The position numbers and the translations under genes are program-made. A stretch of 63,615 nucleotides of DNA, counting the filler, from Collodictyon triciliatum (taxonomy: Eukaryota): assembly GCA_043381765.1 (NCBI GenBank). It is 6 parts of 6 records of this genome, joined end to end, with 100 filler letters (N's around TTAATTAATTAA, not from the genome) between each part and the next. Parts side by side here need not be neighbours in the genome. Positions count along the whole stretch, not along the records: positions 23,693 to 35,427 come from JBHJMP010002327.1; 5 more parts are not named here. One strand, 5' to 3'. Shown one piece after another: positions 81-59,158 of this stretch (position 1 is its first letter; each line of letters starts with the position of its first letter). The notes under the pieces are model-generated. The model was not told where the DNA came from, did not search any database, and saw only the letters and a program-made list of their open reading frames with translations.

Positions 81-1801
81 TCAGCCACTTTTGTTTGTTG
101 GATTCTCGTCTAGCTCTGCGAGATTGGCTGTGACCAGTGAGGCTTCGAATAAATCGTGACATCTGACAAGGGATAGATAATCAAATGTTTTCATACGATA
201 TGTTGATGCGTTTGGCAGCAGTGTGGGGGGTGTGTCATCTCCCAGGTCGGCAGGCTTTTCCACGGGTGTCTTTGTTTTTGAGTGTTGCTTTGTGTGATGG
301 TGCTTGCATGTCTGGTGTTTTTCCTGCGGTTTGAACGAAAATAGTTTAAGGATGACGGGAAAAAAGGATAGATTTTCTTTTCCTGTTAGCATTTCTATCC
401 TATTTCCTGTTCCTAAGATATATAAAACCTTGGAAAACTTGGATTTCGATTTGTCTTTCTGTGGTGGTTCACAGCTGGTGGTAGCAGGTGGTAGAACTAA
501 AAAAAACGTGTCATCGCACGATTAGAAATCATTCTCTTATTCCATGAAAGATAAGAGCTCAATTCAAATATATTCTGCACAATACAATTTTCGGTATCAA
601 TCAACAACTTGATTGAATGAGTAACCTGATGGCTCGTTCTGATACCAAGGATGTTGGGAGTACCCATATGATGTATTTTGGAATGAGGCATCAGCCGCGT
701 CCCATTGTGCATATGAATTAGGTGTAGGATTTATCATCGACACAACTTGCTGCATCATCTGCCCAACCATGTGACCCATCATTTGGCCAATCACCTGTGC
801 CTGTGATGGTTGTGGCGGGTGCCAATACGACGCCCACATATGATTTTGATTCCAGGATGCATTCATCACATTGTCTACATCGGCTGGTGTCTGTTGAGCA
901 GGGTCAATAGGGTCTGGCGCCCTTTTCTTTCCAGAATTCAAAGATAACTTGCTGGTTCCCTTTTCAGATCAATGTCCGATTTGTGAGATATGGATAGAAA
1001 CGCCTGATTGTATGACACACACATATATATGGCTTACTAATCTAATTATCAGGCACATACCTCCTTCCGTTTTTTAGATGGAAGCAAAACCGTTGTTTCT
1101 TCTGCGACCACCGCAGGGATGGATCTCTTCATTTGCTCCTGTAGATGGTTTTGTGGAATTCATATCGACGCGATGCAGTAATTGGCTGCCCGAAGATGGG
1201 GCGCATAGGAACGGTGGTGGGAATCTGGTTCAATTATGAAAGGTGCATAATGATTCAATATTCACCCGAAACTCGTCTATGCCCTCGTCCCACGCGCGTT
1301 GCAGCTCAGTATCGTCCCAGATATCATCCTAAATACCAAGTGAAACCAATTCAGAGAGAAGCGAATGACACCAGTACAGAGATGGCTGAATAGGTGCGAA
1401 ATCGAAATGAGTGTAAAGTGGATATAATAGATATAATAGATATAATAGATATAATAGATATAATAGATATAATAGATATAAAATAGATGTAAAATAGATG
1501 TAAAATAGATGTAAAATAGATGTAAAATAGATGTAAAATAGATATAAAATAGATATAAAATAGATATAAAATAGATATAAAATAGATATAAAATAGATAT
1601 AAAATAGATATAAAATAGATATAAAATAGATATAAAATAGATATAATAAATATGTGTAAATGGACACAAACGATATTACAGGAATTAAAAGATATTGAGA
1701 GGGCAAGGGTCGTCTGATTGTCGACCAAAGTGCCAACTCACATTCCCAAAAGACAGATCGACCGGGATTCCTTCCTCATTCTCGCCGGACGATTCACTCA
1801 T
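81..1801 (-). CDS. SMN-like protein (Gemin2-binding N-terminal motif), multi-exon
   Basis: Exon 1 1801-1742 (MSESSGENEEGIPVDLSFGN) splices GT-AG in phase 0 to exon 1328-1266 DDIWDDTELQRAWDEGIDEFR, matching the SMN Gemin2-binding motif (human DIWDDTALIKAYDKAV). Further exons at 1138-1061, ~1003-628 (Q/M/P-rich) and ~500-81. 3' structure uncertain. Confidence 0.55.
1421..1648. repeat. Compound 9-/11-mer tandem repeat (GATATAATA)n/(GATRTAAAATA)n, intronic in the SMN-like gene
   Basis: Directly visible tandem units; explains the spurious Y/I/F/L-rich ORFs at 1277-1736. Confidence 0.95.
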
Positions 1802-11754: not shown

Positions 11755-11854
11755 NNNNNNNNNNNNNNNNNNNNNNNNNNNNNNNNNNNNNNNNNNNNTT
11801 AATTAATTAANNNNNNNNNNNNNNNNNNNNNNNNNNNNNNNNNNNNNNNNNNNN
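11755..11854. other. Artificial contig linker (44N-TTAATTAATTAA-44N)
   Basis: Identical 100-nt six-frame-stop spacer recurs five times in the window. Confidence 0.99.
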
Positions 11855-19599: not shown

Positions 19600-20240
19600 T
19601 TCCTTTCAATTTGTGCAGGATGGTGGAGATGTTGGCTTTGGTTCGCTGGCCATCGTTTGCATGGACGCTACTTGGTGTCTGGGTGGCGGAGAAGTAGTCG
19701 GTAATCAGGAATTGCATCCTGCAGTTTGGCCTGTAGCCCGAGTCTTGTGCTTGCATGAGAGATACAAGGCGAGGTTTGATATCTTTCATGGCTTCTTTCT
19801 ACATGTCTCTTCTCACAGGGTCTGAGTAATAAAGAACGTGCAGGTGGCGAAGAAAGCTGTTGAGGAAAGAGATTTGTATGATGTCGTTAAGCCTGTTATC
19901 AGGAATGGGTGGCTGGTTGTTGAGTCTTGCTTTGCGTGAGTATATGCGCGCTATCCACATAGTCTATAGCAAATGGCCTCACGTCACTGCCCAGAATGTT
20001 TTTGCCTCTGGACGCAGCTGTTGCAGAGGCCCAAATATCGCCTGGATTGGGCAAACAGCCGCAGCCGTCTTGAGTGTCAGTCGAAGAATCTCACCGGCTG
20101 TTTCGCGCAGGTTTTGAGCGAAGGGACATTGCACAAACGTGTGCTCAATGGATTCATCACCGTTGCTGCAAAGTGTGCATTGTTGGGAGACTTTGACAGC
20201 TTTTGCCGCGCGTGTGCCTATCCATAGCTCCCTATTAATG
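19600..20240 (-). mobile_element. Degenerate 3' remnant of an L1/Tx1-like non-LTR retrotransposon (zf-RVT zinc knuckle)
   Basis: CTLCSNGDESIEHTFVQCPFA fits the CxxC-x(4-5)-E-x3-H-x4-C C-terminal motif of L1/Tx1 ORF2, followed by TMWIAR (W-x-x-R) and in-frame stops. No RT domain upstream. Confidence 0.7.
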
Positions 20241-22686
20241 AGATGGCATAAAGCAGCAAAAAACACTGCCAAAACAAAATTAATGCAAACCATATCATAA
20301 CAAAAAAAGGAAATGATTCACTCTGTATGATATCGACCATATAATATTTTGTGTTCTCTTATGACTGCGGCACGTGAAAAAAAATGAACGAGCATGGGTT
20401 GTATGTTATGCCACCCCGCCTAGTAGTGTATATCCAGAACAAGATTATGTCTTATGGTATATGTCCAGTGATAGGTAGCATTCAGGGGCGTCCATTCAGA
20501 TGTGTGCTCCATCAAGACGGATTGAACACAGTTCTATTATATTCATAAATCTAAAGCTTCTGGAAACACATACCATTTTTTTACTTTCTGCTTTTTTGTA
20601 TCATAAATCATCGTGTGCAAAGCGACTGGGCAAATAAAAATAAAGCAAAAAATAAGAATATTTGACACTGCCTTTGCTTTACACCCCAAAAAACACGTCT
20701 GATATGCTTCGCTTCGCTAATCACTTGTATTTCTTCTATTCTCTTGTTTTTTTCATAGAGCTCATATTTGTTTGGTGCTTTTATTCGCCCTTTTTTCTAC
20801 TGTTGTATATTAACGCGTGATTTCATTTGGTGTTTTTTTCTACAGTGTTATATCGAGAAAGTATATCCGTAGAAACCGTTTTTACCTGCGGGCACATAAC
20901 CTTTACACAGGCTAATTTTGAAAGATTTTATTATGTTTTTATCTTGATTAATGCAGATGGAGTTTAAAATGATGAATAGCGTAATAACTAAATATTGTTT
21001 ATCAATATGTATAGACACAGTCACATGAAAATTTTTAATAGGCAGCCAACTTATATGACTTTTTGGAGGGTGCTTATTGTATGGATAGGTTGGTTTCTTT
21101 GTACCGAATATTTTATAGATGTATAATCTGATTTACCATTTTAATACCCATTCGGACTTGAATACCGTATATAAGCAACATATTACAACCAATATATTGA
21201 TATTCTTTTTAATGGCAAAAATTAATCAAATGCAATCAAAAATTAAAAATTCTCGTAATAAATCAATTTGAACAGGATATTGCCAATACTGTCAGTAACT
21301 CTTTTGTAATTATGAAATAAATATTTAATTGCTTTCATAAGTATGTATACGATAAAGAATGCTAACAGCGCAAGACTATCTTACATCTATGAGATATTAG
21401 TTGTAAATTGATCATTCAGCTTATCGAGCAAGATTAATACATTACGAACCAAATAAACACAGCACACATATGTAATATATTCAAACAAAATATTTTTGAT
21501 TATATGCCATGGCTAGTGCATTGTTGGCTTTGTATATGTAATCATCGTGCGTTGAATAATCAAAATACAGTCCCTAGGAGACTGGAATATCGATAATGTA
21601 ATTCACTTAGAAATTATTAATAAATCAATACTCCATGAGACACGGTAGCTGTGACTTTGACCACGGAGTCCAGAGCACGGCGTAAAGGCTTGACTTTGTA
21701 AATTATTATTTTCTCTCTTTTTAAATTTGTGTAACCCTCGATTGTTTGACCTGGCATAGTAATATATTGTTTAGATGCATTAAGTAATCATACACATAAT
21801 ATACATGATAATTGTGATGCCAGAAAACTAATATAAATCAGCTAAAGAACGTTGGTAGTTATGAGACCCTGAAGAGGAACCAAGCCGACATAAAAACCCC
21901 AAGAGAGCTGTGTTACTGTCATATGATATTTCTTGGGACGCTAATCTTACAAATAAAAGTAAGAAATCAAAAGCATATAAAGCCTATCTCATAAATTACA
22001 AGCGTAATATCAAAAAATGGGATGATAAAACTTTAGATAGAATTATCCTAACAAATAACAACTTTAAACAAAAAAATCCAAAAAAAATTAGGGAATCCAC
22101 CAAAACATCATCGCACAAATGAAATACCTAACACACGACATAGAAAACATAAATAAATTACATCTCAAACTTTCAGAATATTATTTTTGGTATAATTGTG
22201 AATAATTGCAAGATTGCACCAACCACAACATAACCAAATATAAGAAAAATCACTGTGTTTTTGTTTTACTTTTCAATCCCTTACTCAACCTCACCACTAA
22301 TTGTTGTAATATATCATAGTCTTTACTTAAATAACACTCGCGTTGAAGAATACAATAAATGCCTGACATAGACAGGTAATAAAATTCCTTGAAATCGTTT
22401 TTAAGGTAACTGATTTGTGAGTACTTTTATCAACCCGACAATTTTACCTGCCCTTCTGTCAGTCTGGAACACAATATGAACCCGCGTTGGAGTTTTTTTT
22501 TTTTTATTTACAACAGAATATGATGTCGGCGCCCGTGACTACAATATTAAAACCATCTTGGATTTAACCCACTTCAGGAATAAAAGTATATGTAAAAACA
22601 CTTTGCTATCTTTCTTTTTCAACAACCGGTATATCTTATCTTACATTCCTATTCATATCTTTCTATCTATCTTTTATTTTTTATAA

Positions 22687-23592: not shown

Positions 23593-23692
23593 NNNNNNNN
23601 NNNNNNNNNNNNNNNNNNNNNNNNNNNNNNNNNNNNTTAATTAATTAANNNNNNNNNNNNNNNNNNNNNNNNNNNNNNNNNNNNNNNNNNNN
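23593..23692. other. Artificial contig linker
   Basis: 44N-TTAATTAATTAA-44N. Confidence 0.99.
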
Positions 23693-23955
23693 AAAGGAAT
23701 AAAAAGGAATAAAAAGGAATAAAAAGGAATAAAAAGGAATAAAAAGGAATAAAAAGGAATAAAAAGGAATAAAAAGGAATAAAAAGGAATAAAAAAGCAA
23801 TAAAAACAATAAAAAACAATAAAAAACAATAAAAAACAATAAAAAACAATAAAAAAACAATAAAAACAATAAAAACAATTAAAAACAATTAAAAACAATT
23901 AAAAACAATTAAAAACAATTAAAAACAATTAAAAACAATAAAAAGGAATAAAAAG
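23693..23955. repeat. 10-mer tandem array (AAAAAGGAAT)n grading into (AAAAAACAAT)n/(AAAAACAATT)n
   Basis: Directly visible. Confidence 0.95.
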
Positions 23956-24061
23956 AGTCAAAACTGAAAACGAATTTTAAAAATAAGACTGCATATATAA
24001 AAAAAATCTCACATTCCTTTTGTAAACACCCAGATCATTCGACTGAATCAGCCACCCCAAG

Positions 24062-25264
24062 ATGCTCTCGGCTTATCTCTTCGGACTGTTTGTAATGGTC
24101 TCTTTGAACTTTCCTCAGACGATATGCACAAAAGGTGCTGCTCTCCAGCCCGTATCCAGCGAGCGACCAGAGACTGAGCCATGCCCGCCCTCCGATCTTG
24201 TGGATCTCAAAACGATAGCTCAACAGCATGGCATTTATGTCGAAGTCGATCTCCGGTACTCTTGGGAGCACAACTTTGTTGGCAGGCGCATGCCTGGCTA
24301 CGAAGAGCCTGACGCATGCTTGCTTAGGAAGCACGCAGCCCTGGCGCTTTTAGATGCAGCCAAAAAGCTTCAATCCATGGAGTTTGTAGCGGCCCAAGTC
24401 TTTGGAGGCTCCTCCTCTGAAAAGGTCAAGCTGCACTTCCGAGTTTACGATTGCTACAGACCTCAACGAACGGTAGACTATTTCGCCTCCTGGGCAAACA
24501 ATACACTAGACGATACCATGAAGTCCTATTTCTATCCGACTGTCCCGAAAGAGAGCCTCTTTTCTGAGGGATACATCGCGCTGCGCTCTGGGCATACCCG
24601 TGCCTCTACTATAGACCTCTCTTTGGTTGCCACACCACCAGACCCAAACAATCCAAGACAAAACCCAGACCCCTTTCTGCTGGGCCTCACTTTTGAACCT
24701 TGCTTCCTACCTCTTCCGATTAGACCCCACGACGCTGCGTTAGATATGGGGACGTCCTTTGATTGTTTTCACCCTGCTTCCCACACCGCATCTACAGGAA
24801 CAACATACTTGAACTCGACGATAACCTTCCCGTCAAACGTCTTATTCAACCGGAGACTTCTCAACGATACCCTTTCGGAATTTGGCTTCGTAAACTATCC
24901 TCTTGAATGGTGGCACTTTACTTACCCGACACAAGGTCTCTACTACGATTTTCCAATTAGGAAGGAAGCGTACCGCTCTGCTTTGGTCGGGTGCCCCCCT
25001 GTTGATGCAGCAGACTCTCTGCCATCTCTTTCTCCATCTTCAAAAAGCAACTCCTCACCATACCACCTTTCTTCCCTGGCCATCGCCCTGATTTCATTCA
25101 TCTCATTCTTTCTTTTCGCTGTTGTGCTGATTATATGGCACTTAACACACCGCCAAGCGAGAAGGCCTTCACTATATTCCCGTTATAAGGCATACGACGG
25201 TATTTTGATATACATGCATTCATATTGGATAGGATTGTATTCTCTTCCTTTTGTTCCCTCTTGA
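24062..25264 (+). CDS. VanX/DdpX-type D-alanyl-D-alanine dipeptidase (peptidase M15D) with signal peptide and C-terminal TM helix
   Basis: Single 400-aa ORF with DLRY...NFVGR, YDCYRPQR, SGHTRASTIDL, DMGTSFDCF, NRRLL and FVNYPLEWWHFTY. Hydrophobic N-terminus, Ser-rich linker, then LAIALISFISFFLFAVVLIIW followed by basic residues. Confidence 0.93.
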   Translation: MLSAYLFGLFVMVSLNFPQTICTKGAALQPVSSERPETEPCPPSDLVDLKTIAQQHGIYVEVDLRYSWEHNFVGRRMPGYEEPDACLLRKHAALALLDAAKKLQSMEFVAAQVFGGSSSEKVKLHFRVYDCYRPQRTVDYFASWANNTLDDTMKSYFYPTVPKESLFSEGYIALRSGHTRASTIDLSLVATPPDPNNPRQNPDPFLLGLTFEPCFLPLPIRPHDAALDMGTSFDCFHPASHTASTGTTYLNSTITFPSNVLFNRRLLNDTLSEFGFVNYPLEWWHFTYPTQGLYYDFPIRKEAYRSALVGCPPVDAADSLPSLSPSSKSNSSPYHLSSLAIALISFISFFLFAVVLIIWHLTHRQARRPSLYSRYKAYDGILIYMHSYWIGLYSLPFVPS

Positions 25265-26321
25265 GAGGGCTTTCTTAATCTTAACCCCTTATGCACGATG
25301 CACCATCGGATAACGCCGTCATTTTGTGCTTAGGGCGCATCAATTTCTCCACCGCTGAGTGATTAGCCAAAGGCGCCTTACTCCATATTTCTCTGCCCAG
25401 TTAGAGTGTGTTCCTTTCCCTTTCCCTTTCCCTTCCCCTTTCGTTTCATTTCCTTTTTTTTTAAAAAAAAAAAATAATCTCTCGTATTACCTGAATAAAG
25501 CGGGGTTGATTGCTTGGGGAGTGCTGTCTCTCGAAGCAAGACAATATTCTGTGTATCCGAAGGTGGGGACAGGCCGCTGTGCGAAAAATCTATGTCGTCA
25601 TAATTATATATCTGGAAACTATATGGTATATTAATTAATGAGATATGCTGCCATTTCAAAGACATCTAAACCTAACATATATCTAGAATGTTAACAAATA
25701 TGTTGATAAAGTAAACTATAATGTACATTGTGGCGATTCCCGAACATGACCATATTCTCTGCTTTTGATTGCCTATACATATAACAATGACATATTTGTT
25801 TTTTGTTTTGTCCAAATAGTGAAATACCTCACACATTTCTGGATAAATACACATACAGATTCTTTCTTTGAAACCTCTGCTGAATTCAAGCCTTGGCCTC
25901 AGCTTTTGGTTTCCGGCTTGATTGGCGCTTGGATGCTGGCCAAATAATCACAAATCTCTTCTGTTTGGCCACTCGCGCTCCGCCCGCTCCCAACCTGCCC
26001 GCAGCACCCGGTAACGAAGACGGCACCGAAACCCGAAGCCGACCAGCCACCACGGCCCCTCCCCCCTTATCTCCTCCTACGCCCCTCTTGTCCTCTCTCA
26101 GCCGCGAACCCCTTCCGAGAAGATCGGAGCGTTTCGATCCGGCCACCAGCTTCCCCTCCACGCCTTGTATATTTCTTGGCCGCTCCTGCAAGGACACGTG
26201 ACCTTCGCCTCCAAAGGAAAACCCGCACACTCGAAACTTTCCAAGCGCCGGACTGCCTCCTAACCTCTTGTTTCTGCAACCACACAGCTTCCGACAGCAA
26301 ACAAACCCCACAGCCTTGAAA

Positions 26322-26746
26322 ATGGTCCACAGCGATATCTGGAACTCCCACCCCCGCAAGTTCGGCCCTGGAAGCCGCGTCTGGTAGGCTCGTGTCTCCA
26401 GTTCCCCTTGCCCACCGCAACTTGCTTACCAGCCCCTCTTTTCCCTTGGAATCTAACAGTTCCACTTTTGTCTGCCCCAACCCTCCCCTTGTTTCGCCAC
26501 TCAACGCTTGATGATGCTTCTTAGCCGCGTCTGCGGAAACGGCCACGGAATCATCCGCAAGTACGGCCTCAACATCTGCCGCCAGTGCTTCCGCACATAT
26601 GCCAACGACATTGGCTTCCACAAGGTTTGCTCGTTCCTTCGTTCCTTCCTTCTCTCCCTCCCACTCGCAAAGTCCGAAATACCTCTGGGCAAAAAGCTGC
26701 TATACTTACCTCTCCCTTTTCCCTCCTCCCCCTTCAGTACCGATAA
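26322..26746 (+). CDS. RPS29: 40S ribosomal protein S29 (uS14), 3 exons: 26322-26383, 26525-26624, 26738-26746
   Basis: Spliced 56 aa [56 protein letters not shown] with the C2-C2 zinc finger; canonical GT-AG introns. Confidence 0.98.
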
Positions 26747-27154
26747 ATGACCCCAAGGAGACCGCAAAAGCCTCGGGTTGAAGCCTGCCGTCCGATCAAA
26801 GGCTCTTCAGCCTTTCCACGCTTGTAAAAGATCCTGGCTACCTGTTTCTCTACCCACACACATAAACGGGATCAAACCAAGAACCACAACCCCTCGTCCG
26901 CAGCCAGTGTTTCGATAATGTCAATCTCTTGTGCCTTCCTCCTTCCGATCCATTCTTCATATATCTTATCGTAGTCACCGCCCAAAGCATCAGGGAGTCC
27001 AGTCCCAGACGGGATATGTGGGAGTGAGGTTGCATTTATGACATTAGTTGATCTTGCTCCGCAGTCCAAAGTCGAGGGACACGACCGTGAAGGTTGAATC
27101 ACCGCCACAAACGCCTGGGCATAGGAGAAGGCGAGAAGTTAGAGGGGTTCAATC

Positions 27155-29067
27155 TCATGGGTGGGTCGGAATAATGAGACCCGTGGGATGTGACCCTCCT
27201 TCTTTTATCCTTCTTGGATATTTTCTTCTCTTTTTGCTGATTCTTTTCAAACCTGCTATTGCCTGCTCGCTGAAGACATTGCCGCTCCAGTCGACCAACT
27301 GAAGGGTTTTGCAAGACTTCGCGGCCTCGGCGAGAAGAGAGCCGGACTCTGGTGTGATTGCGTTGCGGCTGATGTCCAAACACGCGAGCGACTGTGTTTT
27401 TTTCAGCAAACCGACCAGAGGAGGCACACCTGCGTCCCTTATCTTGTTTCCCTAAAACATGAAACCATTAAGGCTGCATACCCACCCACATTCCATAGCA
27501 GGCTCCATCTACTTTCTTTGTTCTGACTAAATACGATTTTGAAAGAACGTATATGGATTATGCCAGAGAAAAGGGATGAAGACGCAGGGTGCGATAGACA
27601 CTATCATACTTCAATATCAAGCGAGTAAACGGTCGCAGAGTCCTCCAGTGCTTTTGCTATGGCTTCGATACCCGCATCACCGATGCTGTTGTTGGCAAGG
27701 TCGATGCTAATAAGGCGACATTGCGGCGAGCTATGCGTGGGGTTATCATCTTATTGGTACATAAAGATATCTCTGGGCCTGTCTTGTTGGATTGCATAGC
27801 AATCATATTGTCTGGTATTGAGCACAGCAAACCTGATATATTTCGCCATTTGTAGTGCCCCGACTTCCGTGATATTGTTACGGTCGACAATCAAGCGCTT
27901 TAGCTATAGAAATATATAATAGAAATTTTTACTTTGTGTTTGGCATGGGAACAAAATACTAAAGTAAAGCAAATACTGGTTGGCGGAAAGAATTAAGACA
28001 TATATACTATTTACGACAATTTTCTCCAGAGCAAAAGATGTACGCAATTATAGTTATGTTGTTTATTGGAAATATATATACATATAAATGTAAGTGTATG
28101 AAAGAATACTTTATCTCCCATGGTCAGTGCTGTCAAGATAATCTAAATTACATGTAAAAGAGCTAAGCCAATAAATTTGAAGAAATATGTTTCACCTGAA
28201 AAAAAAGAAGAAAAAAGAAGAAAAAAGAAGAAAAAAAGAAGAAAAAAAGAAGAAAAAAAGAAGAAAAAAAGAAGAAAAAAAGAAGAAAAAAAGAAGAAAA
28301 AAAGAAGAAAAAAAAGAAGAAAAAAAAGAAGAAAAAAAAGAAGAAAAAAAAGAAGAAAAAAAGAAGAAAAAAAGAAGAAAAAAAGAAGAAAAAAAGAAGA
28401 AAAAAAGAAGAAAAAAAGAAGAGGAGCAAATCCCTTATATTTCTTCATTTTTATACCAATAATATATATGTTTTCATCTCAATCTCATTAAGTACCTCAA
28501 GCCCGTCGTCACCAATATTATTTTTCGATATATTCAAATATGTGATGCTAGTGTTGGCAGATAGTGCCTGTGATTTCCCAAAGTTAGATATTGAATAGTC
28601 CACTTCCTATGATAGTTATTATATATCTAGTGTCATCTTACATGAGCCAAAAATTTTGAACCAGAAGGACCAATTTTGTTCCTGGAAAAGTCCACCCATT
28701 CCAGTCGATTATTACCTGATTTTAAATGTAGTTCGTAATGTTAATCTATGTGAACAGGGGACTAATTCTAATGATAATAATAATACATCTCATGAGAATA
28801 CAAACCTCTCAGTCCATCGCACAATAATTGAAGAACAAGGTCATCAAGACCACAGTTTGATAAAGTAAGTTTCTTGAGTTCTGTATAATACCTGCAAGAG
28901 TGTATATAGTAAATAATACAAAGAAACATCAGGAATGTGCGAATTTAGCGCAGCTGACAAAATTCAACAGTGATGTTTGAATAATAAAATACCTAAGGAC
29001 ATTTGATAATGAATTAAATCCCTCTAGTCCTATATCTTGATTAGCTATTTCCAAGCTAGACGAATTT
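27155..29067 (-). CDS. Ribonuclease-inhibitor/NLRC3-type LRR protein, multi-exon; 5' exon not identified
   Basis: Exons encode NSSSLEIANQDIGLEGFNSLSNVL; ELKKLTLSNCGLDDLVLQLLCDGL; ALSANTSITYLNISKNNIGDDGLE; LISIDLANNSIGDAGIEAIAKAL; GNKIRDAGVPPLVGLL..LDISRNAITPESGSLLAEA (28-aa RNI-type repeats). Confidence 0.85.
28198..28421. repeat. (GAAAAAAAGAA)n-type purine tract, intronic in the LRR gene
   Basis: Directly visible. Confidence 0.9.
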
Positions 29068-29130
29068 CTGTTTCATTTTTAATTAAGGAGGTGCGCGATA
29101 ATGAAAAGGGGATGAAAAATATTAGAAAAT

Positions 29131-29260
29131 GAAAAGAAAAAAGAAAAAGAAAAAGAAAAAAGAAAAAGAAAAAAGAAAAAAGAAAAAGAAAAAAGAAAAA
29201 GAAAAAAGAAAAAAGAAAAAGAAAAAAGAAAAAGAAAAAAGAAAAAGAAAAAAGAAAAAG

Positions 29261-29320
<60 letters not shown>

Positions 29321-29468
29321 NAAAAAAAAAGAAGAAAAAAAAGAAGAAAAAGAAAAAGAAAAAAGAAAAAAACAAAAGAAAAAAGAAAAAACAAAAACAA
29401 AAAGACAAAAAACAAAGACAAAAAACAAAAACAAAAACAAAAAGAAAAAGAAAAAGAAAAAAGAAAAC
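29131..29468. repeat. A-rich low-complexity/poly(A) tract
   Basis: Directly visible (GAAAAA)n, poly(A) and (CAAAAA)n. Confidence 0.9.
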
Positions 29469-29601
29469 AATATAGCGTTCCTGTCATTTTTATTTCCCCG
29501 TCAAGTTTGTCACCGATGAAAAGAGAATAGGAAATGCAAAAACATCAGGTGAAAGCAAATGACGAACGCATATGGGGTGCTGTATCAGGTTGCACAGAAG
29601 G

Positions 29602-32600
29602 TCATTGTGCCGACTCGATCACAGGAGGCTTTTTGAGTTGCTCAAGAAGGATGCGATTGGGCTGCGAACAAAGCTTCACCCCCTCACAGGCGATGTCGTC
29701 TCCCCGCAGTGTTGTGTGTGATGTCCAAACAACAGAAAGACTGATATAATCCTGTCCGTCTTCCTTTGTGGGTGTCCACATATAAATGAATCCGTTTTCG
29801 CCGGTTGTGATGAGAGTGTTTGTGTCCACATCGTATTCAACCGCGCGGACTTGGTTGTGAATCTGCTTCTCAAAAAGCATATCGTACTTACCGCCTCTGA
29901 CCTTGACGATGCGAAGGAAGCCTCCACGATCCCCAAAAGCAACATATTCTGTCTCTTTGATAGTAAACGTATCGCACGCATAGATTGGTGATTCACCCAT
30001 GAACAACCGCTCTTGGCCAGGGCTGCTCTCGTTATTGAGACACATATCAAAACGGTAGACAAGTCCAGTTTCGTCGCATATCACAATCGACTGCTTCGTT
30101 TTGTCTGGGTTGGTCTTTGCAAACACAGGTGTGACAGGGGTGCTTAGGCCATCGGATGATTCGATTTTGGACACTTTTTCGTCCTCTGATAACATCTTTG
30201 AAAGGCCAATGTAATCCAAAGATCGACAGACGACCATGTCATTCTCCACCGTCACAAGAAGCGTCCTCGTGGCATTAGCACCCACTTTGATGTTGAATGC
30301 ATCAACTGGGTTGCTTAAAAGGGTAATTTCATTCTCTCTTTCATCAAGTGTGAAGTTAGACTCATTTAATGCATATGCCTTCAAGCTTTTGTTTGTTGCC
30401 AAAACCAAGTATTCCCTCCCTCTCAATTGGAAAACATCGAATTGAATAACTCTTTCGGTAATTTTGAGTATCGAGATGCCTTTGCTATCGGAATCAAAGA
30501 TATTAATATGACTGAGAGAGCTTAGGTCGCTATTTAATTGGTAATACACGCCCATAAGATTCTCTATTCGCCGGGTGGCAATCCTTGGGATTAAATCCTC
30601 CATAAATCTTGACACCATGCAGTTTCCTGTAGCAAAATCCCACACTTTCAGGAAGCGGTCGCTGCTTCCCGTTACAATTAGCCCGGCAGAAGTTAATATC
30701 TTGTTCAAATCGCCAGGTAGTGGGTCTGTTGATATGTTAGGGAGGATTTTGTCTCTGGGGTGACTTATCCTGGGTGGTACGATTGATGACAGCGTATTAA
30801 TGGCTTTCCGATGCCCATTTGCTTTCTTGATCAATTCGCGGGATGTGATACTCCAGATCCACGCCGAGCTATCTTGGCAGCAGCCAAGGAGGTAATACTC
30901 GTTCATATACTTAAATACATCCAAGTCTGGAATCTCCTTGGTGTGACCCAAGAACGGGCGTAAAACAGTGGCTTCACTGACACTCCACAAGTATACCATT
31001 CTGTCAGCCCCTGAAGATACCAAATATTCTGGCTCTCCGTTATCGGCTGGAACCCATTGTATATCTCGAACAGCTTTTTCGTGCCAGTCCTTCAAAATGA
31101 TAGGACTCGCATCCAATATGCTTGTATCGAAAATGTGTATTTCTTTTTCAATAGCAACAGCAATCTTGTACCGCTTCTGATACTTGATGGCACGAATTGT
31201 TCGAACTTGTCTGTTGCTCGAGATTAAATTATGGGGCTCGCCCAGTGTAATAGCCATATTCTCTAGGCTAAATTTGATTTCTCTATATTCAATGTGGGGT
31301 AAACTTCCAGCATACATGATAAACAGTCTCCCATCCTTGAAAAAGAACTCTGTTGTATTCAAGGTACCTTTCATCTTGATTTTAGATAAGACAGAAATTC
31401 CGCCTTCTTCTCCAGTGCTCTTGTTCGGATTGAATGTTGAAAATATAAGCTGTCCATCCAATGAGGCATACACAAAGAAATGTTCATCCGAATCATCCAA
31501 GCCAAAGTGCGATTGAACTTCAGCACAAGTGTGGATGCATGTGATTTGACCACCATTGATTTTATCTTTGGGTAGTTCGAGCTTCTTCTCGCATGATATT
31601 GCATCCCAAACGAAGATGATTCCGGCTTTGTCTCCAGATATCAGGTATGTATCACCGTTTTTTTTTGAAGTTGCTATGGCTGATATTTCAATACTGCCGT
31701 GTAGTAAATGAATTCCATAATCGCATGCCTCCAAATCCCATACGGATATTATATTACTTGATGCTGTATAAAATTGTACTGATGAATCGCTCACCTCAGC
31801 GCGCCCACAATTGACAGGTTTCTGGTGAATCAGTTTCGGAAGCTGCCCAAAGTCTGTCCCTCTCATAATACAGCCATTAAATATGCACCCACGAATGTCT
31901 GCATCCTTGAATATGACTCCGCTCAAATCAGCGTTGCTGAAATCGACATTTTGTATGACCGCTTGAGATAAATCTGCCCGTGGGATTTTAACCTTCTGAA
32001 GGTTTATGGTGTGCAATGGGATTCTAGCATAGTTCAGAACTGTGATGGCTACACTGGCAGCGTTGGGCACCAGTTTGCTGGAAGTGTCACTAGCTGAATG
32101 ACGAATGATATCCTTGAGAGACTGCGCAAAACTGATGCTTTTGAAGGTATAATCAGCCAGAAATTGTTTGACCAAAAAATCTTTCTCCTGAAGATTAGGA
32201 AAGACAGCACCTTTTTCTTTCCACCTCTTGCTTTCAATTTCCTGTATGGCTTTCTTCGCTCCAAAAAACTCTTGAATAGAACGGTGTATAAATGCATACT
32301 GCTCCTCCTTTTCCGATGTCTGGAAACGTCTAATCAAGGTACCTTTTCGAACCTCTAAGAGTTCATATGTGTCATCAAAGAAGGAGCCCCACTCGTGACA
32401 TGACATATGAATATCCTTCGTCTTTTTTACCGTGGCCACTGTTGTCTTTTTCGTAATGAGTTTTTGTGCGAATGCAAAGGAAAATTCATCATAATTTTTC
32501 TTGTTCGAAACAAGTGGGTTGCTGGCACTCTTTTCTTTGCTAGAATGCCAGAGTCCGATGAACCTATCGTAAATTTCGAATCTAGATAAAGTGGCAACCG

Positions 32601-35196
32601 GTTCATTTCTCTTTTCCTCCAGATAACTCGGCAATACTTTCATAATTAGAGATAAGATAAAAGGAGATTCTGCCGCTTCCTTTAAACTAGGGGAGCTAAA
32701 AATATTCGATGCTATTTCTTGGTGTGTAAGTAGAATTTTTGGTTGGGATTCGACAAATGTCTGAATATATTTCTTGATCTGTTCATTTCCAAAAGGCTGA
32801 AGAACAAGATACTCCACCGGCTTTCTTATATCACCTTTGTGAACTGTTTTTACGCCAAACTTCCGTTCAAGGTCATGCTTAGTTTCTTGGAGATTGTAGC
32901 GATACGTGATAATGACGTGATACCGCTGAAGTAAATCAATATTTTTTTCAATGATTTTGAACGAGCCAGCTTCGTTCAATTCATCATATCCATCCAGTAT
33001 AAATACACCAAGGCTGGCCTCAATAAGCTTTGCATATTCAGACTTCATGTTCTTATGGATATGGTCTAGCAACTTTGCTGGGTTGTTAACTGAAGGAAGA
33101 TTAATGATGATAGGGTAAATGGTTCTTTGCAGAGAGGGGGCTTTACCTAGCCTCTCATGCTGTTTTGTTGCAAATGTGGATTTTCCTGCTCCAGATTTTC
33201 CCAGTATCACAAGAGTATGAGGGGGCCCTTTAAGAAATTGGTCAACGACTTCATCTGCATCATAGAGCTTTTCGTCATTTAGGCCTCGTTTGGCTTTAAG
33301 TTCTACATAAATTTCTTCATTTTCATCATCTGTGATTTTATAAGAGTCTGTACTTGTGCTATGGTCTCGGGATGAGGATAATCTGTAAAATTCTTCTTGT
33401 GCTTGAGAGAAAATATCGGTTGGAAGATAAGTCTCATTCGCGTATGCCGTAGAAGCATTCAGTCTTTCAAGATGCTTGCCCAGCTCTTGCTCAACCAGAG
33501 AGAGAAACTTTGATTTCCTCATGCCCTCCTTATTTTCTTGAAAAATATTGGAAACAGACTTTGTGTGCACTTCTGCTTGTCCTAATTTGCGAAGCTGGTA
33601 GATTGCATGATGTCCGTATTGGATGGGTTGTGCGTCGATGTACTCATCACCCACAAGTTTCTCTAACCAAACCAAGGCCTCTTTGGAGCATGATTTAATA
33701 GGAAGTTGAGCAATGCGTATCACATCCTCGAACACAAACCAAAGTAGTTCTGATGACTTATCCTTTGATAGAATACATTCGGAGAATAGTGATGCATCCC
33801 CTAGTCTATGGCTAAGCACCAATGATTTAAAGAAAATATAATCATCATACCACACTTCTCGCCCTTCACACTTTCTGAATGAGACTTTGATTTTGTCATA
33901 CTCTGCGAGCACGTCGGTTTCGATGCGGTACTCTCTAAAATGGGAATCATCTGGGCTATGGTACACATGGTACTCTGTGGTAAACGACTCTATCTTGTTG
34001 AAAATGCGAACAAAGCCTTGGTAGACCTTCTCAAACATAGGGTTATATCGCGGAACTTTACTGATGTCGGATTTCAACAAAAATTCTGTGATTCTTCTCA
34101 TATTTTCATGGTCAACATCAACTTTAATGTTTCTCAATACAATTGAATCTAGCAAAAGTCCTAGAGAATGAAAAAGAAAGACCAACTGGTCCTCATACTT
34201 TAGCATCTGCGATTCAGACTCGGGAACCCTGATTATAATTTGATTCAATAATTTCGTTACATGGACTTGTGACTTTGGTGCATCTGAAAACAGCAGCGTC
34301 TCGGCCATGCACCGAATGTAGTAGGGCTCTGTGTACATGCCCTCCAACTCTGGCTTTGTCAGTATCACCCACAGCAGATTGCAAAACTCTCTGTCGCACG
34401 TGCGCGCGAGTAGTCCTGCCTCAGAAATATGCCTAACGGTGATGCTGGCACTTTTCATGACAATACGAAGAATTATTTTTCCAAGGAATTTGTGACCCTT
34501 CTTCTTTTTGAAGCGGATCGACTGAGCGAGCGTGAGGGCGTTTGTTGGATTGCGATGAGCTTCTGTTGAATCCAGATTCACCAACTCCTCGAACTTTCTG
34601 AACTGGAAGGGTAACTTTTCTTTGCCCGCTATTCGCCCTGGGTTTCTTTCATCGAGTGTATTTCCCATGTCAGTGATGTGAACTGGTATAGCTTTCTGGG
34701 GTGTATCTTTCTTGGTGGCCTGTGGATTTTCTTCATCGCTGTAGGCGTCCCTTTTATCTTCGTTATCCGATGAATTGTCTTCATTCTCGCTTTCAGTGAC
34801 TGCTTCAATATCCAGTTGTTTTTCTTCCACATCATACATTAGCTTTGGCTCGAATGTTGACTGTACAATCCCACCGCCACAGAGTGTTTGGGTTATTCGT
34901 ACTATGGGAGAGCAATACGGGTATCCTGCGCCAAAGGGTGTATTCTTAGCTAGCTTTCCCCATGTCACATCAAACCCAAGACCCGCCTTGTCTAAATCGA
35001 GAAAAGATTCGAGCAGAGAGTCAGATGATAATAAGTATTGGCACACAGCTGCTGGTATCACCAGTTCAGCTTCGATCCATTTCTCTGGACTGCTTGGTTG
35101 CTCAATAAAAGCTTGGATGTGGTTTTCACGGTCCCCAGTCCCTTGTGTCACACGGAGGTGAAGCCTGACGCTGGGTTGCTCTGTGGAGCCTCTCAT
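29602..35196 (-). CDS. Intronless STAND NTPase: uncharacterised/helical N-terminus + NACHT + pentapeptide repeats + WD40 repeats (NLR-like)
   Basis: 1864-aa ORF. Walker A GKSGAGKST, Walker B VFILDGYDE, SPFILSLI, winged-helix motif FIHRSIQEFF, pentapeptides ADLSQ/VDFSN/ADLSG/ADIRG/CIFNG, and WD repeats (LISGDKAGIIFVWD; LVSSGADRMVYLWS; LGHTKEI; GHRKAIN; VTGSSDRFLKVWD). Confidence 0.95.
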   Translation of the reverse strand: MRGSTEQPSVRLHLRVTQGTGDRENHIQAFIEQPSSPEKWIEAELVIPAAVCQYLLSSDSLLESFLDLDKAGLGFDVTWGKLAKNTPFGAGYPYCSPIVRITQTLCGGGIVQSTFEPKLMYDVEEKQLDIEAVTESENEDNSSDNEDKRDAYSDEENPQATKKDTPQKAIPVHITDMGNTLDERNPGRIAGKEKLPFQFRKFEELVNLDSTEAHRNPTNALTLAQSIRFKKKKGHKFLGKIILRIVMKSASITVRHISEAGLLARTCDREFCNLLWVILTKPELEGMYTEPYYIRCMAETLLFSDAPKSQVHVTKLLNQIIIRVPESESQMLKYEDQLVFLFHSLGLLLDSIVLRNIKVDVDHENMRRITEFLLKSDISKVPRYNPMFEKVYQGFVRIFNKIESFTTEYHVYHSPDDSHFREYRIETDVLAEYDKIKVSFRKCEGREVWYDDYIFFKSLVLSHRLGDASLFSECILSKDKSSELLWFVFEDVIRIAQLPIKSCSKEALVWLEKLVGDEYIDAQPIQYGHHAIYQLRKLGQAEVHTKSVSNIFQENKEGMRKSKFLSLVEQELGKHLERLNASTAYANETYLPTDIFSQAQEEFYRLSSSRDHSTSTDSYKITDDENEEIYVELKAKRGLNDEKLYDADEVVDQFLKGPPHTLVILGKSGAGKSTFATKQHERLGKAPSLQRTIYPIIINLPSVNNPAKLLDHIHKNMKSEYAKLIEASLGVFILDGYDELNEAGSFKIIEKNIDLLQRYHVIITYRYNLQETKHDLERKFGVKTVHKGDIRKPVEYLVLQPFGNEQIKKYIQTFVESQPKILLTHQEIASNIFSSPSLKEAAESPFILSLIMKVLPSYLEEKRNEPVATLSRFEIYDRFIGLWHSSKEKSASNPLVSNKKNYDEFSFAFAQKLITKKTTVATVKKTKDIHMSCHEWGSFFDDTYELLEVRKGTLIRRFQTSEKEEQYAFIHRSIQEFFGAKKAIQEIESKRWKEKGAVFPNLQEKDFLVKQFLADYTFKSISFAQSLKDIIRHSASDTSSKLVPNAASVAITVLNYARIPLHTINLQKVKIPRADLSQAVIQNVDFSNADLSGVIFKDADIRGCIFNGCIMRGTDFGQLPKLIHQKPVNCGRAEVSDSSVQFYTASSNIISVWDLEACDYGIHLLHGSIEISAIATSKKNGDTYLISGDKAGIIFVWDAISCEKKLELPKDKINGGQITCIHTCAEVQSHFGLDDSDEHFFVYASLDGQLIFSTFNPNKSTGEEGGISVLSKIKMKGTLNTTEFFFKDGRLFIMYAGSLPHIEYREIKFSLENMAITLGEPHNLISSNRQVRTIRAIKYQKRYKIAVAIEKEIHIFDTSILDASPIILKDWHEKAVRDIQWVPADNGEPEYLVSSGADRMVYLWSVSEATVLRPFLGHTKEIPDLDVFKYMNEYYLLGCCQDSSAWIWSITSRELIKKANGHRKAINTLSSIVPPRISHPRDKILPNISTDPLPGDLNKILTSAGLIVTGSSDRFLKVWDFATGNCMVSRFMEDLIPRIATRRIENLMGVYYQLNSDLSSLSHINIFDSDSKGISILKITERVIQFDVFQLRGREYLVLATNKSLKAYALNESNFTLDERENEITLLSNPVDAFNIKVGANATRTLLVTVENDMVVCRSLDYIGLSKMLSEDEKVSKIESSDGLSTPVTPVFAKTNPDKTKQSIVICDETGLVYRFDMCLNNESSPGQERLFMGESPIYACDTFTIKETEYVAFGDRGGFLRIVKVRGGKYDMLFEKQIHNQVRAVEYDVDTNTLITTGENGFIYMWTPTKEDGQDYISLSVVWTSHTTLRGDDIACEGVKLCSQPNRILLEQLKKPPVIESAQ

Positions 35197-35299
35197 AGCT
35201 TGGGTGTTTAGCCTGATGCATTTTCTTTTCTAATGAGCGATATGTGTCCTTCTTTTGTGTCTTTGTGTAGATCTGCATGTTTTGGGTCTTTTGTTTTGT

Positions 35300-35335
35300 T
35301 TTTAGTTATTTGTTTTTTTTTGCTTTTTGCTTTTT

Positions 35336-35404
<69 letters not shown>

Positions 35405-35527
35405 TTTTTTTTTTTTTTTTTTTTTTTNNNNNNNNNNNNNNNNNNNNNNNNNNNNNNNNNNNNNNNNNNNNTTAATTAATTAANNNNNNNNNNNNNNNNN
35501 NNNNNNNNNNNNNNNNNNNNNNNNNNN

Positions 35528-47246: not shown

Positions 47247-47346
47247 NNNNNNNNNNNNNNNNNNNNNNNNNNNNNNNNNNNNNNNNNNNNTTAATTAATT
47301 AANNNNNNNNNNNNNNNNNNNNNNNNNNNNNNNNNNNNNNNNNNNN
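47247..47346. other. Artificial contig linker flanked by T-rich and (AAAAAAC)n repeats
   Basis: 44N-TTAATTAATTAA-44N. Confidence 0.99.
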
Positions 47347-59058: not shown

Positions 59059-59158
59059 NNNNNNNNNNNNNNNNNNNNNNNNNNNNNNNNNNNNNNNNNN
59101 NNTTAATTAATTAANNNNNNNNNNNNNNNNNNNNNNNNNNNNNNNNNNNNNNNNNNNN
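59059..59158. other. Artificial contig linker
   Basis: 44N-TTAATTAATTAA-44N. Confidence 0.99.

Follow-up and report, generated by a model that had tools for sequence, protein, structure and literature searches.

A probable nuclear NACHT-PPR-WD40 gene of Collodictyon triciliatum with its closest relatives among Diphylleia rotans transcripts

The window, by which we mean the whole stretch of 63,615 nucleotides of Collodictyon triciliatum DNA that was analysed (GenBank assembly GCA_043381765.1), consists of joined contigs of approximately 11.7 kb (pieces of 11754, 11738, 11735, 11719 and 11712 bp). The linkers, located at 11755, 23593, 35428, 47247 and 59059, are each composed of 44 N, 12 AT-only bases and another 44 N, the single one read being TTAATTAATTAA. 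Given that the window is concatenated, the physical context of the ORF under study is limited to positions 23693–35427, and the features of this contig are listed in Table 1.

Table 1 Features of the contig at positions 23693–35427 of the window, with residue numbers of the long ORF where applicable.
Feature	Coordinates	Strand	Residues	Basis or remark
VanX-like D-Ala-D-Ala dipeptidase (Peptidase_M15) ORF, uninterrupted	24062..25264	+		400 aa
Cytosolic ribosomal protein S29 (RPS29) gene	26322..26750	+		two GT..AG introns; Pfam Ribosomal_S14, 38 bits
RNI-type LRR gene	27221..28878	-		at least 6 short exon-like fragments split by stops; downstream of the ORF, same strand
(AGAAAAAGAAAAA)n / poly-A microsatellite	29124..29467	.		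separates the ORF from the remainder of the contig; contains one N, at 29321
Possible polyadenylation signal, AATAAA hexamer	29489..29494	-		about 108 nt 3′ of the stop; direct reading
ORF, complete and intronless (protein P0001)	29602..35196	-	1-1864	1864 codons + TGA stop
Region of divergent WD40 beta-propellers (about 740 aa)	29605..31830	-	1123-1864	Pfam WD40/propeller families
Pentapeptide-repeat spacer, NACHT to WD40	31831..32061	-	1046-1122	Pfam Pentapeptide
NACHT NTPase module with helical/winged-helix part	32062..33336	-	621-1045	Pfam NACHT and motifs
All-helical pre-NACHT region (predicted)	33337..34608	-	197-620	helices H197-H608 in a low-confidence model
Acidic low-complexity linker with ESENEDNSSDNED, predicted unstructured	34609..34881	-	about 106-196	sequence and model
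Orphan N-terminal segment, predicted mixed beta/alpha, very low confidence	34882..35196	-	1-105	AF2 pLDDT 36
Poly-T run reaching from 5′ of the ORF to the contig end (poly-A in the gene's orientation)	35289..35427	.

The first in-frame ATG of the ORF is located at 35196, and the reading frame is open upstream only as far as 35229. The first-pass annotation had described 5595 nucleotides without interruption, and exactly this extent was recovered; the second-longest ORF of the whole window, by comparison, encodes 400 amino acids. No Shine-Dalgarno-like purine run was seen by eye 5′ of the ATG, no tandem repeats were found at the DNA level within the ORF, and an Rfam search of the window yielded no matches. 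On both sides, about 100–230 nucleotides of non-coding sequence are followed by low-complexity DNA. The AATAAA hexamer downstream of the stop is weak evidence for a polyadenylation signal, because the flank is A/T-rich. Of the sampled words, sequencing runs X1 and X2 contain 0.47 and 0.38, and X3–X6 contain 0.05–0.10. That X1 and X2 are RNA is a guess, and these shares say nothing about expression, habitat or continuity.

The contig is eukaryotic, since it carries a spliced RPS29 gene (first and second exons beginning at 26322 and 26525, and a two-codon last exon near 26740) together with the multi-exon LRR gene, three of six fragments of which matched LRR_6, one of them above the cut-off (32.2 bits vs 23.4). 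An earlier statement that nearly all other genes here are broken by introns holds for the recognisable RPS29 and LRR genes and for those for pantoate ligase (panC) and MFS_2, each of which is spread across different reading frames, on other contigs of the window, but not for the VanX-like ORF. The predicted product of the latter is hydrophobic at its N-terminus and extended at its C-terminus, and its best relatives (41–46% identical) come mostly from bacteria and metagenomes and include some from sponges and Protostelium.

The microsatellite at 29124–29467 is the sole spot at which a mis-join could be hidden, with a foreign fragment (bacterial, viral or other) fused to the eukaryotic contig through the poly-A tract. 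We regard such a contaminant or assembly error as very improbable, even though the 344-bp A-rich repeat with its N parts the ORF from the spliced genes, the contig ends in a poly-T run on the other side of the ORF, and the assembly is fragmented, with a GC content ranging from 29% to 51%. The exact protein is also missing from a collection of 15 billion proteins, which would suit a foreign fragment; its nearest relative, on the other hand, comes from a eukaryotic transcriptome. The next contig opens with a similar microsatellite, and another lies inside the intron-rich LRR gene, where a AAAAAAAGAAG array occupies 28200–28422 between fragments. The GC3 of the ORF (0.44) is typical of the window (0.37–0.61 for its other coding pieces), neither flank shows prokaryotic gene packing, and the AATAAA hexamer follows the stop.

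Pfam detected NACHT, pentapeptide repeats and WD40 in that order, each above its cut-off. The NACHT match (PF05729) covers residues 660–816 and model positions 1–165 of 167, with 33.0 bits against a cut-off of 26.7. The NACHT signature consists of a Walker A motif, GxxxxGK[ST], and a Walker B motif followed by the acidic pair of DGxDE, and both are present in the ORF protein: GKSGAGKS begins at residue 666 (motif 666–674) and ILDGYDE at residue 733 (motif 731–739). Further motifs of the module are Y630, R766, P845 and FIHRSIQEFF at 969–978. In a 68-sequence alignment of the family, the NTPase columns G669, G671, K672, D735, D738, E739, R766, P845, F969, H971 and S973 are invariant, as are T1052 and A1074 in the spacer. 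An arginine after Walker B and a histidine of the winged helix are conserved in such proteins, with roles derived from work on Apaf-1 and NLRC4; their counterparts here would be the invariant columns R766 and F969/H971/S973, for which structural roles are assigned by analogy.

The pentapeptide match (55.3 bits vs a cut-off of 20.2, region 1052–1116) was accompanied by matches to pentapeptide-repeat proteins among PDB sequences, with E values down to 3e-11. For WD40, Pfam gave 44.2 bits (cut-off, 27) and called a single canonical repeat, at 1372–1405. Other propeller families matched across 1125–1571, every one under its own cut-off, and the WD40 repeats are therefore divergent; the region appears to have space for two propellers. 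The domain order, the intact Walker A and B and FIHRSIQEFF motifs, and the divergence of the WD repeats are all as the first-pass annotation had called them, and the acidic linker that it had placed after the N-terminal segment is likewise present, with ESENEDNSSDNED at residues ~135–147. In the model, this linker is almost without secondary structure (two isolated strand or bridge residues; pLDDT of 23–33).

The region preceding the NACHT module proved far less tractable. AF2 models of residues 1–655 (3-row alignment) and of residues 1–135 alone had mean pLDDT values of 39.7 and 36.2, respectively, and both are unusable. Residues 1–655 had no match among 1.84 billion representatives and matched no Pfam family at E ≤ 10, and so contain no known effector domain, including HET, by that measure. 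An Atlas search returned no match for residues 1–650 or 1–135, and comparison of the N-terminus with PDB sequences gave just one chance match (E of 0.2) to an acidic tail. Between the N-terminal segment and the N-terminus of the Diphylleia protein described below, BLASTP found no similarity, the best match (E of 3.6) lying elsewhere in that protein, and residues 1–135 aligned to its full length only in scattered fashion. Residues 449–620, in contrast to residues 1–448, are common to the two proteins by BLASTP. In these searches, residues ~1–450 matched nothing known. For residues ~1–125, which the first-pass annotation had proposed as a possible undescribed effector domain, there is accordingly neither a homologue, Diphylleia included, nor a confident model.

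In the family member P0079, the equivalent position is occupied by an ARM_5 domain (PF23948), to which residues 242–517 of the ORF protein may correspond in highly divergent form. Alignment of the pre-NACHT region with the family by hhalign gave a weak score of 31.5 (probability, 5.7%; E of 0.0067) over 256 colinear columns, compared with maxima of 23.9 and 25.8 for two sets of 60 shuffles and 27.3 for the reversed query. A profile HMM built from 18 family N-termini gave no signal with the ORF N-terminus (–3.4 bits, no better than shuffles), and ARM_5 itself had no Pfam match in residues 1–655 at E ≤ 10. For the pre-NACHT resemblance to family proteins proposed in the first-pass annotation (WY / W..IA / A..L..L), the signal is accordingly weak by profile–profile comparison and absent by profile HMM.

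A word search with the whole protein gave 4 matches and missed Diphylleia, and a regional search with residues 640–1125 was used instead. It yielded 246 family matches, with coverage of 95–100% in most of the 120 listed. These 120 are mostly from Mortierellaceae and also include Mycoavidus, Glomeribacter and a Mortierella endosymbiont, in agreement with the first-pass annotation, which had pointed to Mortierellaceae and Mycoavidus. It had pointed to ciliates as well, but the only protists that the 120 listed matches name are Diphylleia and Hexamita. The ORF protein is a new, divergent member of this already known NACHT-PPR-WD40 family, in which PPR stands for the pentapeptide repeats.

Its closest relatives are transcript products of Diphylleia rotans (EukProt), with 39% identity over residues 640–1125 and 30% over 449–1854. 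BLASTP alignment with the 1907-aa Diphylleia product P0009 is colinear over residues 449–1854 (439 of 1460 positions identical), and that with family member P0002 is also colinear. The Diphylleia proteins P002792 and P002795 (EP00002; 1907 and 1908 aa) have the same domain order, nearly equal length, and the same pre-NACHT helical segment from residue 449 onward, whereas residues 1–448 of the ORF protein cannot be aligned to Diphylleia by BLASTP. Diphylleia also has the short forms P002789 and P002787 (1246 and 1245 aa), which begin just before the NACHT domain. Diphylleia is known in this respect from transcripts alone, and its transcriptome may include prey or contaminant sequences.

For phylogenetic analysis, an unrooted tree of 67 rows was prepared, with exclusion of 54 of the Mortierellaceae rows among the 120 listed (for size) and of P0119 (which lacks the region). 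The ORF protein and Diphylleia formed a clade (SH-aLRT of 100) located outside a 52-row clade (SH-aLRT of 99) that unites Mortierellaceae and endosymbionts with rows from soil metagenomes. At 1.35, the branch of the ORF protein is long, and the tree program issued a warning about long-branch effects. An AU test rejected the union of ORF protein and Diphylleia with the five endosymbiont rows, a group chosen after the tree had been seen (delta lnL of 128; p-AU of 7e-5). Scans of prokaryotic genomes and of metagenomes, each based on two short peptide patterns, revealed 50 loci (20–27% identity over long matches; 45 of the 50 in Mycoavidus MAGs) and 18 loci (21–24% over long matches, none close), respectively. 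Other bacterial carriers were Anammoxibacter, proteobacteria, and Nitrospirota/Magnetococcales.

We conclude, with a probability of roughly 0.7, that the ORF belongs to the nuclear genome of an intron-rich eukaryote and codes for an intact NLR-like STAND NTPase of the NACHT-PPR-WD40 type, and that with its Diphylleia relatives it represents an old family branch of its own and no recent gift from Mycoavidus-type endosymbionts. The first-pass annotation had instead suggested acquisition from, or exchange with, intracellular bacteria. This proposal found no support, the nearest relative being a transcript of the eukaryote Diphylleia rotans, and an affinity with endosymbionts was contradicted by the position of the protein outside the clade of Mortierellaceae and endosymbionts and by the AU test.

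A broader form of the proposal, in which the gene, or an ancestor shared with Diphylleia, was acquired horizontally from an unsampled and possibly intracellular bacterial donor and is still intronless because it is foreign, seems to us unlikely. Large single exons are common among NLR genes, although the 5.6 kb without introns do stand out where RPS29, the LRR gene, panC and MFS_2 are split. The adjoining VanX-like ORF is likewise intronless and closest to bacterial proteins, and the family is abundant in bacteria, as the Mycoavidus loci attest; yet no close bacterial sequence was found, with identities of 20–28% against 39% for Diphylleia. The composition of the ORF is like that of the host coding pieces, and any transfer would therefore be old. 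Given that the tree is unrooted, the direction of a transfer cannot be read from it. Ciach et al. (2024; PMC11291939) describe the NACHT-PPR-WD40 layout for Mortierellomycota and Mycoavidus and infer transfer from bacterium to fungus for this same architecture, a precedent that would favour such an acquisition.

The Mortierellomycota and Mycoavidus/Glomeribacter proteins share with the ORF protein the domain order and the invariant NTPase and spacer columns, and many of their long forms have Walker A near residue 650–715, as does the ORF protein. They differ in showing just 20–28% identity to it and in carrying an N-terminal ARM_5 domain and regular WD40 repeats, neither of which is detectable in the ORF protein, and it falls outside their clade.

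Fungal proteins of the HET-E/NWD type have NACHT followed by WD40 repeats, which are highly similar in tandem, and an N-terminal module that is regarded as their output. The ORF protein shares the succession of NACHT and WD40 but differs in its pentapeptide spacer, in its lack of near-identical tandem WD repeats, and in the lack of HET or another known effector domain (Pfam, residues 1–655, E ≤ 10). With the bacterial antiphage NACHT protein EruA (NCBIfam) it shares the type of STAND NTPase, the match being weak (residues 796–990; 24.1 bits vs a cut-off of 1000), whereas its setting is eukaryotic; PADLOC defence models gave 0 families at E ≤ 0.01.

By analogy with the action of NACHT/STAND proteins, the ORF protein is likely to operate as an NLR-like molecular switch. 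The closed state would be maintained by the C-terminal WD40 propellers, which would also bind either a ligand or a self protein in modified form, and such binding would free the NACHT module to exchange and bind NTP through K672 of Walker A, D735, D738 and E739 of Walker B, R766, and the conserved H971. The activated module would then oligomerise and thereby gather the N-terminal ~620 residues, a helical, possibly ARM-like scaffold with lineage-specific first 100–200 residues, which once clustered would signal or execute. The pentapeptide beta-helix, conserved across the family, would serve as a rigid spacer. The ligand, the N-terminal output and the immune role are put forward here by inference only.

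Rather than an immune or non-self sensor, the protein might be a scaffold NTPase with a housekeeping or signalling role, whose STAND architecture is all that it has in common with such sensors; we consider this view doubtful. Repeat arrays diversify rapidly in fungal HET-E/NWD genes; in the ORF, by contrast, the WD40 array is old and has degenerated, with one canonical repeat called and no homogenisation at the DNA level, as might be expected of a scaffold. Such a role would also be in keeping with the absence of a known death or effector domain in Pfam and the negative PADLOC result. A tblastn search of the window found the ORF itself alone, with no paralogue in the other five pieces, although this count rests on ~64 kb of genome. 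To our knowledge, all characterised NACHT-repeat proteins of similar logic act in immunity, cell death or allorecognition, and the N-terminus, which diverges so fast that the two closest relatives cannot be aligned before residue 449, fits a conflict-related module.

The N-terminus of ~450 residues without a detectable relative is a candidate for a new output module. A further reading combines the old eukaryotic branch formed by the ORF and Diphylleia with residues ~1–450 as a fast-evolving, lineage-specific output module of undescribed fold, and derives the branch from a bacterial donor that has escaped sampling and may have been intracellular, an origin to which its intronless state in an intron-dense genome would be due; we hold this combination to be improbable. 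Were it true, the architecture would be an immune cassette transferred repeatedly among protists (Diphylleia, Hexamita and Collodictyon) rather than something peculiar to Mortierella and Mycoavidus. The practical value of the finding is modest for now. Our literature search found no paper that mentions both Diphylleia rotans and NACHT, and the layout has so far been discussed as an exchange between Mortierellomycota and Mycoavidus endosymbionts (Ciach et al., PMC11291939). The ORF and the Diphylleia transcripts add to it a deep, separate branch in unrelated protists, and this branch widens the question of the origins of eukaryotic NLR-like receptors.

The NACHT gene is a single open frame on the minus strand, running from 35196 to 29602 and comprising 1864 codons and a TGA stop, according to both the ORF listing and the translation. 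The first-pass annotation had described this uninterrupted frame, and its strand is here corrected to minus. Given that the runner-up ORF in the 63.6-kb window encodes 400 amino acids, the length is far beyond chance. The Walker A and B motifs, FIHRSIQEFF and the acidic stretch named earlier were all found on translation, and the NACHT, pentapeptide and WD40 families each exceeded their Pfam cut-offs. The WD repeats had been called divergent, and we agree: Pfam called just one canonical WD40 repeat, and matches to propeller families over residues 1125–1571 each fell under their own cut-offs, so the repeats are truly divergent. The propeller portion spans about 740 residues. WD repeats of fungal HET-E/NWD genes undergo homogenisation, whereas those of the window gene show no sign of it. 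In an alignment of 68 family members, the NTPase columns G669, G671, K672, D735, D738, E739, R766, P845, F969, H971 and S973 were invariant, and the pentapeptide spacer was conserved, with T1052 and A1074 invariant. GC3 of the ORF was 0.44, compared with 0.37–0.61 in other recognisable coding pieces, and an AATAAA hexamer lies about 108 nt past the stop codon.

Features of the NACHT protein (residues) and of the contig that carries its gene (window positions)
Feature	Location	Strand	Remarks
Acidic stretch	residues ~135-147		NACHT protein
NACHT	residues 660-816		Pfam 33.0 bits, cut-off 26.7
Walker A	from residue 666		GKSGAGKS
Walker B	from residue 733		ILDGYDE
FIHRSIQEFF	from residue 969		NACHT protein
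Pentapeptide repeats	region 1052-1116		Pfam 55.3 bits, cut-off 20.2
WD40			Pfam 44.2 bits, cut-off 27
VanX-like D-Ala-D-Ala dipeptidase (Peptidase_M15)	24062-25264	+	uninterrupted 400-aa ORF
Cytosolic RPS29 gene	from 26322		two GT..AG introns
RNI-type LRR gene	27221-28878	-	at least 6 short exon-like fragments, stops between

A word search with the full-length protein gave four matches, all distant. With residues 640–1125 as query, 246 proteins matched, of which 120 were listed. The top two among the matches listed were transcript products of Diphylleia rotans from EukProt (39% identity, 98% coverage), and the 1907-amino-acid form aligned to residues 449–1854 of the window protein with 439 of 1460 positions identical. 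The other matches listed, at 23–28% identity, included many Mortierellaceae proteins, four from Hexamita inflata, unnamed metagenome proteins, proteins of Mycoavidus, Glomeribacter and a Mortierella endosymbiont, and metallophosphoesterase fusions of Magnetococcales and Nitrospirota. The family named in the first-pass annotation was thus recovered with respect to Mortierellaceae and Mycoavidus, but no ciliate was named among the 120 matches listed. Two genome scans, both of which hang on two short patterns, yielded 50 loci in prokaryote species genomes (45 of them in Mycoavidus MAGs; 20–27% identity over long matches) and 18 loci in metagenomes (21–24% identity). In the paper collection searched, none named both Diphylleia rotans and NACHT. 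The short (1246 amino acids) and long Diphylleia forms share long identical C-terminal stretches but diverge within portions of the NACHT module, which points to two or more paralogues or else to Trinity isoforms that are chimeric. The Magnetococcales (P0023) and Nitrospirota (P0080) members of the NACHT-pentapeptide-WD40 family are named metallophosphoesterases and have PF00149 among their domains; a phosphoesterase would therefore fill the N-terminal (output) position in those bacteria.

A tree of the NACHT-pentapeptide region (IQ-TREE, LG+C20, quick search, 526 columns) was built from 67 rows, namely the window protein, P0002 and 65 of the 120 listed matches; 54 named Mortierellaceae rows were left out for size, as was P0119, from which no region could be cut. 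The window protein and Diphylleia formed a clade with an SH-aLRT of 100 and a long stem. The window–Diphylleia clade lay outside a 52-row clade (SH-aLRT 99) that contained all Mortierellaceae together with the five rows from endosymbionts and others from soil metagenomes. It shared an unresolved comb with Hexamita, the Magnetococcales/Nitrospirota pair and some odd rows from metagenomes; the tree tool warned of long branches. Forcing the window protein and Diphylleia together with the five endosymbiont rows, a grouping that follows the first-pass proposal and was tested after the tree had been inspected, cost 128 log-likelihood units (AU test, p-AU 7e-5). Neither the placement nor the AU test supports the earlier proposal that this NACHT gene came from intracellular bacteria or was part of an exchange with them. 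An older transfer may lie behind the gene; the tree is unrooted, and neither donor nor direction can therefore be read from it. The NACHT gene, sister to the Diphylleia transcripts, adds a new and very divergent member to the published NACHT-pentapeptide-WD40 family.

Linkers of 44 N, 12 AT-only bases and 44 N occupy 11755–11854, 23593–23692, 35428–35527, 47247–47346 and 59059–59158; the one linker read, TTAATTAATTAA, is a six-frame stop. The pieces so bounded measure 11754, 11738, 11735, 11719 and 11712 bp, followed by a further, final piece that the end of the window truncates, and these descending lengths suggest size-sorted contigs joined by linker. The physical context of the NACHT ORF is therefore 23693–35427 only, findings based on adjacency across linker points are unsafe, and statements about other genes here mostly refer to other contigs of the same assembly. 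Given the spliced RPS29 gene and the stop-separated LRR fragments, three of six of which matched Pfam LRR_6, the NACHT contig is eukaryotic and intron-rich. The LRR gene, also on the minus strand, is the immediate downstream neighbour of the NACHT gene, a curious arrangement; it is a separate gene, since the NACHT ORF stops at the same point as the Diphylleia protein. The NACHT gene had been presented as intronless among intron-broken genes, and RPS29, the LRR gene and, on other contigs, a pantoate ligase and an MFS_2 transporter (each split across separate frames) fit that picture, but the VanX-like ORF is uninterrupted too. This second intronless, bacterial-like gene on the contig adjoins RPS29; its N-terminus is hydrophobic, and a hydrophobic stretch also occurs in its C-terminal extension. 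Its best relatives (41–46% identity) were chiefly from bacteria and metagenomes, but sponges and Protostelium were matched as well. A 344-bp A-rich microsatellite with a single N at 29321 separates the NACHT ORF from its neighbour genes, and a poly-T run ends the contig on the other side. Similar A-rich microsatellites occur inside the LRR gene and at the start of the next contig. Such repeats (AAAAAAAGAAG, AGAAAAAGAAAAA, poly-A/T and CAAAAA-like) recur within contigs and at contig ends (28200–28422, 29124–29467, 35289–35427 and 35528–35700), and they probably caused the assembly breaks. On another contig, a match to zf-RVT, the zinc-binding domain of reverse transcriptases (19982–20317, minus strand, E 6e-8), suggests a retroelement fragment.

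Residues 1–655 matched none of 1.84 billion representatives at E ≤ 0.001 and nothing in Pfam at E ≤ 10, and in the PDB they gave a lone chance match (E 0.2); the Atlas held no usable neighbour for residues 1–650 or 1–135. Residues 1–150 had no BLASTP match to the N-terminus of the Diphylleia protein, the closest relative, and the first stretch common to the two proteins starts at residue 449. AlphaFold2 models were too low in confidence to use, both for residues 1–655 with a three-row alignment (mean pLDDT 39.7) and for residues 1–135 alone (36.2). A low-confidence secondary structure call gave a mix of strands and helices up to around residue 105, an acidic, largely unstructured part to about 196 and helices to about 608. 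The proposed N-terminal effector domain is thus an orphan sequence without fold assignment.

Walker A lies at about residues 650–715 in many family members, as in the window protein, and the N-termini of these members are mutually homologous and contain Pfam ARM_5; in P0079, for example, ARM_5 occupies residues 73–423, or 110–460 residues ahead of that protein's Walker A. Comparison of a window plus Diphylleia profile with a profile built from 18 family N-termini scored 31.5 (probability 5.7%, E 0.0067), with 256 columns aligned colinearly (242–517 versus 239–552), and the aligned part includes the WY and W..IA motifs named in the first reading. Shuffled controls all stayed lower, with maxima of 23.9 for 60 column shuffles and 25.8 for 60 block shuffles; reversing the query gave 27.3 across 57 columns, and the family profile HMM gave no signal in the window protein's N-terminus. 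Given the score above the shuffles, the reversed-query value and the null HMM result, the helical region may be homologous to ARM_5.

PADLOC models gave no match for the NACHT protein, and its match to EruA was far under the EruA cut-off. From what is known of STAND and NACHT proteins, the repeats would hold the NTPase closed until ligand binding, nucleotide exchange would drive oligomerisation, and the output would be clustering of the N-terminal region. A putative immune or non-self role for the NACHT protein of Collodictyon is plausible.
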